This document shows positions 2,547-2,976 of a DNA stretch of 8,436 bases, in pieces (the first letter of the stretch is position 1; every line of letters starts with the position of its first letter). The notes under the pieces were generated by a model. That model worked only from the letters and a program-made list of their open reading frames with translations, was not told the origin of the DNA and searched no databases. The DNA lies in IMG/VR virus record IMGVR_UViG_2548876860_000011, positions 1 to 8,436 of that record. One strand, written 5' to 3'. The stretch comes from a virus (taxonomy: Duplodnaviria > Heunggongvirae > Uroviricota > Caudoviricetes). The position numbers were made by a program, and so were the translations under genes.

Positions 2547-2976
2547 ATGGGGTTCCCTTCACCGGCCAGCGATTACGTTGAAACGAGGATCTCACTCGAT
2601 CAGCATCTTATCAGCCAGCCAGCCAGCCAGCCAGCCAGCCAGCCAGCCAGCCAGCCAGCCAGCAGCGACTTACTTCATGCGGGCATCGCGTTCACATTTC
2701 AGGGAAGGAATATTCCTGGGGGCGCTGCTTGTGGTAGATGCGTCACTTACTGCCTGCGATGGCTCACTGCTGATATGTGCAATCGACGGGGAGTTCAGGA
2801 TCAAGCGATATCGGACTCATCCTCAACACCACCTGATTAATTTGGAGAGCGGGAGAAGGGAGATGCTACCAGTAGATGATGACGGTTACGGTTCTGCTCC
2901 CGCGATATTCGGGGTGATTACTTACATCATTAATGATGCGAGGAACGCGGAGTTTGATGATTGTCCGGTGATGTAA
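2547..2976 (+). pseudogene. UmuD'-like (peptidase S24 / LexA-like C-terminal domain) gene, frameshifted inside a tetranucleotide repeat in this sequence
   Basis: ATG at 2547 is preceded by GGAGG (2533-2537). The N-terminal part MGFPSPASDYVETRISLDQHLIS matches UmuD GFPSPAADYVEQRIDLNQLLIQ, in frame 0. The C-terminal part ATYFMRAS...LLVVDASLTACDGSLLICAIDGEFRIKRY...IFGVITYIIN matches UmuD ATYFVKAS...[29 protein letters not shown]...VFGVVIHVV, but in frame +1. The two frames meet inside the CAGC repeat at 2612-2663. Confidence 0.7.
2612..2666. repeat. tetranucleotide simple-sequence repeat, (CAGC)13 followed by AGC, encoding (QPAS)n
   Basis: Direct count in the sequence: 13 perfect CAGC units at 2612-2663, then AGC at 2664-2666. 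It lies in the linker of the UmuD'-like gene; 12 or 15 units would restore one continuous reading frame. Confidence 0.95.

Follow-up and report, generated by a model that had tools for sequence, protein, structure and literature searches.

Can a microsatellite act as a switch for a prophage-borne factor of the SOS response in Escherichia coli? This question is raised by an 8,436-nucleotide stretch of DNA from a virus of the Caudoviricetes (IMG/VR record IMGVR_UViG_2548876860_000011, positions 1 to 8,436; "the window" hereafter means this whole stretch), in which 13 tandem CAGC units split humD, a gene encoding a homolog of UmuD', between two reading frames. As judged by comparison with related loci, this repeat is real, it is hypermutable on an evolutionary scale and it toggles the reading frame of a HumD gene located in an SOS module.

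The CAGC array and the interrupted gene

Tandem Repeats Finder (TRF) delimited the array, (CAGC)13, at positions 2612-2663, with a period of 4, 13.0 copies, 100% matches and zero indels; the chance expectation for 13 perfect tandem units in 8.4 kb is about 2e-25. A preliminary description of the window had placed 13 perfect units at 2612-2666. Their count and perfection are confirmed by TRF, and the end has to be moved to 2663, as 2666 takes in a partial AGC. The array starts 65 nt past the ATG of humD, at codon 22 of 129. The frame opened by ATG 2547 encodes MGFPSPASDYVETRISLDQHLIS and then (QPAS)n, and the +1 frame reads ...QPAATYFMRASRSHF...DDCPVM through and beyond the array, with ...QPAATYFMRASRSHFREG...DDCPVM at its exit. 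The earlier proposal of an arm in frame 0 and of S24 homology in the +1 frame is thus borne out by translation. All three frames are open across the array, with the same QPAS repeat in each, and no opposite-strand open reading frame (ORF) of significant length was found over it.

In the 13-unit allele, the frame set by the ATG turns to nonsense after the array and yields a product of 97 aa (translation of 2547-2840). The humD allele of the window is OFF, a term used here for alleles in which the ORF is broken, ON designating those in which it is continuous. Because the unit is 4 nt long, every single-unit step changes the reading frame. When the locus was rebuilt in silico with 0-21 units, a single ORF was obtained only if the unit number was divisible by 3, with products of 129, 133, 137, 141 and 145 aa for 3, 6, 9, 12 and 15 units, respectively; the predicted restoration of the ORF by the loss of one unit or the gain of two is recovered in the last two of these alleles. 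The array also has the structure of a contingency locus, being a perfect repeat of hypermutable length, located toward the 5' end of an ORF, with a 4-nt unit that is not a multiple of 3. Its predicted folding (DNA parameters) is strand-asymmetric, (GCTG)13 forming a hairpin of -11.9 kcal/mol (z = -2.7) and (CAGC)13 being near-unstructured at -2.1 kcal/mol. This difference fits slipped intermediates with a strand bias and could tilt the balance between expansions and contractions depending on the direction of replication. A Chi-like role of the GCTGG repeat was considered and rejected, as it does not match GCTGGTGG.

Which protein does the array interrupt? Family tests were performed with the array collapsed to 3 units, and the 13-unit allele qualifies only with both frames joined. 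The 3-unit reconstruction matched the NCBIfam equivalog NF051876 (HumD family translesion DNA polymerase) with 217.6 bits, for a cutoff of 120, over profile positions 1-129 of 129. The sequence of this protein shares 69.8% identity with HumD of phage P1, and 65-69% with the UmuD-like proteins of D6, N15 and HK140. Its best match among solved structures is UmuD' (1UMU, E = 7e-23), residue 2 of the query aligning with residue 1 of UmuD' in 1UMU, which is Gly25 of UmuD (residue 25 in full-length UmuD, 8GMT). The N-terminus, MGFPSPAS, reproduces the Gly-Phe-Pro-Ser-Pro start left after cleavage, and there is no cleavable leader. Since this start matches the first residue of the cleaved form, HumD would be a ready-made UmuD' analogue, and since the protein begins at the Gly25 position, no RecA-mediated cleavage should be needed. 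HumD of phage P1 is reported to substitute for UmuD' in SOS mutagenesis, and expanded in-frame HumD proteins, with 4-12 extra linker residues, may be active too.

The core was described earlier as an S24 catalytic domain. The S24 fold stands; the catalytic function does not, as the position of the UmuD nucleophile Ser60 is occupied by His (ASRSHF versus ASGDSM). Lys97 is retained, so that the Ser-Lys dyad of the self-cleaving S24 peptidases LexA and UmuD is incomplete. The other HumD family members inspected likewise carry SHF or THY at this position. With Ser60 replaced by His, the protein is expected to have the S24 fold without peptidase activity. In RefSeq relatives, PGAP annotates an "S24 family peptidase, frameshifted" pseudogene whose coding sequence starts at window position 2431, inside the upstream gene ORF80, and runs to 2976; this start was probably modelled on fusions of ORF80 and HumD, of which the Salmonella protein P0047 is an example. 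As an indicator of the OFF state, the "frameshifted" flag proved uninformative, since the intact loci of fEC.1 (9 units) and SC476 (no array) are flagged too.

Length variation, mutation rate and origin of the array

Does the number of units vary in nature? Array length was read from DNA at 26 array-bearing loci with near-identical flanks, interrupted arrays included. These loci were retrieved from complete E. coli genomes, from a metagenome pattern scan, from contigs with exact ORF80, and from contigs with the exact 37-aa C-terminal fragment or the exact protein of the adjacent SRAP (SOS-response-associated peptidase) gene. ON alleles have 6 units (one locus, L047), 9 units (three loci) or 12 units (three loci), and OFF alleles have 8 (one locus), 10 (seven), 11 (four), 13 (two, the window and strain CDF6), 14 (four) or 19 units (one). 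Nine perfect lengths, from 6 to 19, and interrupted arrays thus occur among otherwise near-identical loci, all three frames being represented; seven of the natural loci are ON and 19 OFF, all with an otherwise intact ORF.

Length differences among loci are always whole 4-nt units. One of the 12-unit loci is interrupted, (CAGC)4CAAC(CAGC)7, and so is one of the 14-unit loci, (CAGC)6CAAC(CAGC)7; both share CAAC and the 3' sub-tract, and their 5' sub-tracts differ by two units. This shared CAAC is present at three loci, which come from two assemblies. Two more interrupted 12-unit alleles, with QPAN and QPTS, are known from proteins only. The same lengths come back in complete genomes as well as in draft assemblies, produced in unrelated laboratories and on unrelated platforms: 14 units in the three Swiss isolates GF8, GF75 and GF161, and 11 units in isolates from Viet Nam (human), cow, and chicken in China, plus one further assembly. 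A comparison of repeat number across related strains had been suggested as a check on the preliminary description, to be answered in the negative by a fixed length with the same frameshift or by a downstream frame lacking conservation. The result is the opposite on both counts, with 6-19 units at near-identical loci and a downstream frame intact in every array-bearing allele.

How widespread is the array? Of the 11 matches to (CAGC)4AGCGAC in the metagenome scan, two were true loci (8 and 9 units), and scans of species-representative genomes and of IMG/VR with the same pattern returned unrelated 4-unit chance matches only. The expanded array was not seen in the HumD homologues surveyed (120 listed, 16 inspected), and no array-bearing allele was found in plasmid and phage collections. 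An exact-sequence look-up placed the 37-aa OFF fragment on 130 contigs and ORF80 on 177, figures which are a rough guide only. An ON:OFF ratio derived from this look-up was dropped as incomplete, the 12-unit protein of L031 and L028 being reported absent by it.

The flanks of the array provide a measure of its mutability. Across all array-bearing loci, the 310 bp upstream (ORF80 and the arm) show zero substitutions and the 313-bp core a single synonymous change in one locus. A single haplotype, with no difference over 1,320 bp on the upstream side and 2,401 bp on the downstream side, is found with 8, 10, 12, 13 and 14 units; conversely, each of the lengths 9, 10 and 13 is shared by at least two haplotypes, as defined by 13 marker sites downstream of the array. 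Since these many length changes lie on almost substitution-free flanks, the array mutates far faster than its surroundings. Counting at least 10 length changes against 13 segregating sites in about 2.2 kb, we estimate that it changes at least 1,000-fold above the per-site substitution rate, a value to be taken as a loose minimum, since events are concealed by recurrent lengths. Moreover, as 6, 9 and 12 units can be reached from 3 units by single steps only through out-of-frame states, OFF-to-ON restoration must have happened, unless three-unit jumps dominate.

Where did the array come from? HumD homologues are almost all 129 aa long and read LISQPAATYF at the array site. Relatives with no array or with a proto-repeat (L005-L008, L033, L034) all encode ISQPAA in a 129-aa protein. 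At the DNA level, L005, L007 and L008 carry ATCAGTCAGCCCGCAGCG, with no tandem CAGC units, L033 carries ATCAGCCAGCCTGCAGCG, with 2 CAGC units followed by a variant unit, and L006 and L034 carry ATCAGCCAGCCAGCAGCG, with 3 perfect CAGC units. The 3-unit proto-repeat present in some lineages thus results from synonymous choices at Ser and Pro codons, and sequence comparison indicates that the lineage of the window enlarged it within the Ser-Gln-Pro-Ala linker codons between arm and core. The expansion duplicates SQPA and keeps both junctions, LISQPA with the arm and PAATYF with the core. It lies at the two residues that precede an invariant Pro, which are the least conserved of the arm-core linker. 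The motif of CAGC, also written (GCCA/TGGC)n, outnumbers all other tetranucleotide micro-repeats in E. coli K-12, an abundance attributed to the bias of very-short-patch repair (PMC7015867); where that article cites Gur-Arie 2000, the longest tetranucleotide repeat of K-12 is given as 4 units.

A candidate switch and the case for neutral decay

How would such an array control HumD? Slipped-strand mispairing at replication would add or remove whole CAGC units from this hypermutable microsatellite, grown from its three-unit proto-repeat in the prophage gene. A unit number divisible by 3 would give full-length HumD, with 4 more residues (one QPAS copy) per 3 units, and any other number a truncated product made of the arm and nonsense. 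Upstream, two CTG-N10-CAG palindromes, as found in promoter regions of the LexA (SOS) regulon, sit in the 74-bp gap between the divergent dinI and ORF80 (Table 1); relatives keep better-matching boxes, TACTGGATGGATATACAGTA for the first and, in L033, TACTGTTTTTTTATCCAGTA for the second. ORF80 lies directly upstream of humD in E. coli and in the other relatives inspected. From these predicted boxes, we infer LexA control of an ORF80-humD two-gene unit with humD last. Because humD is the last gene of this LexA-boxed unit, the supply of HumD by an ON allele would be tied to SOS induction. Upon induction, HumD would pair with host UmuC without RecA-mediated cleavage, and an OFF allele would supply no such UmuD' analogue.

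Is this a working switch? We consider it fairly probable, with considerable room for doubt, that the locus is a heritable ON/OFF switch of an active protein. Of the slipped-strand on/off switch put forward in the preliminary description, the variation in length and the presence of all three frames are well supported; a mark of selection is not seen, the in-frame share being the neutral 1/3. In-frame expansions are plausibly tolerated, since the insertion site is a variable linker and is coil, albeit in a poor model.

Several observations weigh against a switch with a role. The AlphaFold model of the closest 129-aa relative, in which the insertion site is coil, has a mean pLDDT of 54.5. In-frame loci amount to 7/26 (27%), which does not depart from 1/3 (binomial test, p = 0.54), and 3/9 distinct perfect lengths are in frame; among the 26 loci there is no sign that either state is favored, in samples which are clonally structured (the ORF80-anchored loci have mostly 10 units and the SRAP-anchored ones are mostly in frame). 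Apparently clonal isolates share one length, 14 units in all three of GF8, GF75 and GF161 and 10 units in several assemblies of the same projects, so that the mutation rate is not extreme; contingency loci are expected to switch reversibly within a clonal culture at about 1e-5 to 1e-2 per generation. The expansion is confined, as far as sequence comparison goes, to one young E. coli prophage lineage with flanks at least 99% identical. The module itself is under loss in some strains. A 1,518-bp deletion (window 1236-2753), present in 13 of about 24 SRAP-anchored contigs, takes pin, dinI and ORF80 along with the array-bearing 5' half of humD; this segment is missing for instance in L037, L040, L041, L043 and L045. 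The deletion begins exactly at the center of the invertase crossover site and ends within the humD core, which suggests an invertase-mediated event at a pseudo-site. In addition, IS421 is inserted in the SRAP gene of Ecol_545 (L003 / L029) and C1 (L027), both with 11 units. The SRAP gene of AH01, also with 11 units, is intact; this length thus occurs with and without the insertion. With an ON share of 0.27, an array in one young lineage and a module deleted in many strains, the selective maintenance expected of a contingency locus is not observed.

The share of in-frame loci, the loss of the module and the single young lineage are what would be expected if the array slipped in the same way with no role at all, humD being dispensable cargo of a degrading e14-like prophage whose array drifts until the gene is deleted. 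We give this explanation a lower, still substantial probability. To our knowledge, no natural switch based on a simple sequence repeat (SSR) is known in E. coli. A chance proto-repeat of this common motif would have expanded, with its frameshifts tolerated. The examples of phase variation in E. coli covered in PMC11868660 are invertase- and methylation-based only. Against neutral decay, no array-bearing allele has a second inactivating change in humD and all arrays are perfect except one interrupted type, two points which carry little weight in so young a lineage. In-frame alleles of 6, 9 and 12 units persist in several haplotypes, and HumD is kept at 129 aa across many prophages and plasmids of Enterobacteriaceae, so that the family as a whole is under selection. 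Adaptive phase variation is thus possible and unproven, the neutral explanation fitting the data equally well, and a benefit of the switch to bacterium or phage is likewise unproven. It seems doubtful to us that the array is a selected contingency locus of E. coli, by which lysogens would hedge between a high- and a low-mutability response to damage through a heritable, stochastic supply of a pre-activated UmuD' analogue.

Explanations in which the OFF state is only apparent, or in which length itself matters, fare less well. Were the 13-unit count wrong and the true gene in frame, the cause would be an error of sequencing or assembly, an alternative already raised in the preliminary description; repeats longer than the k-mer can indeed break or be miscounted in short-read assemblies, and several database proteins begin right past the array as "partial". 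Such an artefact can be regarded as excluded because the differences are all whole units and recur across unrelated laboratories and platforms, and the interrupted arrays share their interruption yet differ in unit number. OFF alleles could still make HumD if ribosomal or transcriptional slippage on the repeat restored the frame, for which three open frames with the same QPAS repeat would be favorable. We hold such recoding to be very improbable, as no slippery heptamer, homopolymer run or stimulatory structure was seen beside the array when the sequence was inspected, the mRNA-sense strand folds weakly and alleles in both wrong frames would demand both +1 and -1 recoding; we know of no recoding mechanism for tetranucleotide repeats. 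Only marginally less improbable is that the QPAS linker grades the activity of HumD by its length, out-of-frame alleles being transient by-products. In-frame alleles with 4, 8 and 12 extra residues do exist, inserted at a variable linker, but with about 70% of the loci out of frame, such alleles are too numerous to be transient intermediates, and a 4-nt unit is ill-suited to in-frame length variation. A slippage-driven switch of HumD, as opposed to these alternatives, thus has the neutral drift of the same array as its main competitor.

Genomic setting and relation to known systems

Over the 701 bases around the array (positions 2300-3000), the window is 100% identical to E. coli strain CDF6. 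According to the annotation of the matching region, the locus lies in the E. coli chromosome, at the end of an e14-like prophage at icd. The gene order is baseplate and tail-fibre genes, a Pin-type invertase, dinI, ORF80, humD, SRAP, a gene of unknown function, an HNH endonuclease, an icd fragment, iraM, ycgX and bluR. The features surrounding the array are collected in Table 1.

Table 1. Features of the window at and around the humD array (positions are those of the window).
Feature	Position	Strand	Basis
dinI-family gene, divergent from ORF80-humD	1985..2227	-	Pfam DinI 1.6e-20; DinI family protein in CDF6 annotation
LexA-box-like 20-mer TACTGGATGGATACACAGTG, CTG-N10-CAG	2243..2262	+	pattern match 2245-2260
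Second LexA-box-like 20-mer TGCTGTTTTTTTATCCAGTG	2267..2286	+	pattern match 2269-2284
ORF80, 80 aa, first gene of the predicted unit	2302..2544	+	phrog_3893 1.3e-36; stop 2 nt ahead of humD ATG
GGAGG ribosome-binding site of humD	2533..2537	+	read off the sequence; 9 nt ahead of ATG 2547
humD 5' part, ATG and N-terminal arm MGFPSPASDYVETRISLDQHLI, frame 0	2547..2611	+	translation
(CAGC)13 perfect tetranucleotide array	2612..2663	+	TRF; QPAS repeat encoded whichever frame is read
humD 3' part, S24-fold core ATYFMRASRSHF...DDCPVM, +1 frame, stop 2974-2976	2664..2976	+	translation
TAA closing the out-of-frame 97-aa product of the 13-unit allele	2838..2840	+	translation
SRAP gene, convergent, abuts humD stop	2977..3645	-	Pfam SRAP 6.8e-51; NCBIfam PRK09951 464 bits
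Terminator-like hairpin and T run just past humD stop	2984..3013	+	consensus scan; hairpin at 2984-3003

ORF80 has no Pfam or NCBIfam match and is labelled inconsistently across sources, as "DNA polymerase V" or as "tail fiber assembly protein"; from its constant position, it may be a functional partner of HumD. A Chi sequence, GCTGGTGG, is found within the SRAP gene at 3394-3401 (+) (match 3392-3407). Relative to the compared loci that cover these positions, bases at 2266, 3806, 4394 and 4577 are found in the window only, and the strain of the window thus differs from every genome retrieved. The first of these is a G where all other loci have A, 1 nt 5' of the second LexA-like box.

The pin gene (1305-1856, +), encoding the Pin-type invertase, lies beside a 26-bp gix/hix-like crossover site, TTCTACCAAACCAACGTTTACGAAAA (1225-1250). 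In strain GF8 (L002), a tail-fibre segment (about 157-1247) has the opposite orientation to that in the window, so that a second, classical switch by tail-fibre inversion lies 1.4 kb from the repeat. Further downstream, a direct repeat of about 120 bp, 99% identical between its copies (3848-3964 and 5019-5136), flanks a 271-aa ORF of unknown function (4043-4858, -). The minus-strand end of this repeat resembles a tRNA 3' end (GGTTCAAATCCTCTCGTGCCGACCA), and ARAGORN found no tRNA; the two copies may be att-like remains of a small inserted cassette. The HNH endonuclease (322 aa, 5333-6301, -) scores against PADLOC PtuB models (best 1.9e-23), as well as against a model of type IV methyl-directed restriction, and may be a defence gene at the prophage end. 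It sits at what we take to be the place of mcrA in the e14 map.

How does the humD array compare with known repeat-controlled genes? As in Haemophilus influenzae lic1 (CAAT) and mod (AGTC) and in the SSR genes of Neisseria, a perfect tetranucleotide array sits near the start of an ORF and leaves every frame open, its unit number varies among close relatives, one frame in three is productive, and the range of 6-19 units is typical. In contrast to these loci, the array is found in an E. coli host and in one young lineage only, and its target is not a surface structure or a restriction-modification gene but a cytoplasmic SOS/translesion-synthesis factor carried by a prophage. With P1 HumD, the protein shares, besides its sequence identity, the 129-aa architecture at 3 units and the Gly25-type start. 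The P1 gene is repeat-free and located on a plasmid prophage, whereas the array-interrupted humD belongs to the dinI / ORF80-humD / SRAP module of an e14-like prophage. Similarly, the arm motif GFPSPA.DYVE.RI.L, the core and Lys97 are shared with E. coli UmuD' (1UMU, 1I4V), the subunit of Pol V. E. coli UmuD differs by its cleavable N-terminal 24 residues and by Ser60, HumD being phage-borne and carrying the QPAS linker expansion.

Mutator switches controlled by repeats or by mobile elements are known from a 6-bp tandem repeat in Salmonella mutL and from prophage excision controlling mutL in Streptococcus pyogenes. They resemble the humD array in that a heritable, potentially reversible change of a repeat or of a mobile element alters mutation capacity. 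The mutL switches act on mismatch repair and hence on the spontaneous rate, whereas the humD array would alter damage-induced (SOS) mutagenesis, and would do so only if the ON protein is active. In phages, Gomez, Barrick and Waters 2025 (bioRxiv, 10.1101/2025.10.21.683753) describe slippage-prone contingency loci with reversible frameshifts in T2 and T4, two lytic coliphages, and in several other phages. Phage populations were sequenced in that work, in contrast to the long tetranucleotide array found here in a cargo gene of a resident prophage. No description of the humD CAGC array was found in a literature search of journals outside subscription.

What does the locus mean for its host? Even if neutral, it shows cleanly, in a natural setting, how synonymous codon choice can create a 3-unit proto-repeat from which a microsatellite is born, and the array could serve as a fast typing marker for carrier lineages. 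It also explains the automatic "frameshifted S24 peptidase" annotation at this site. If the switch is active, it would be the first natural ON/OFF locus based on slipped-strand mispairing of a tetranucleotide to be described in E. coli, as far as we could find. Its target would be unusual, as it would set the mutagenicity of the SOS response rather than a surface antigen. Such a switch would be a form of bet-hedging tied to evolvability, with a possible bearing on how antibiotic resistance emerges after exposure to DNA-damaging drugs.

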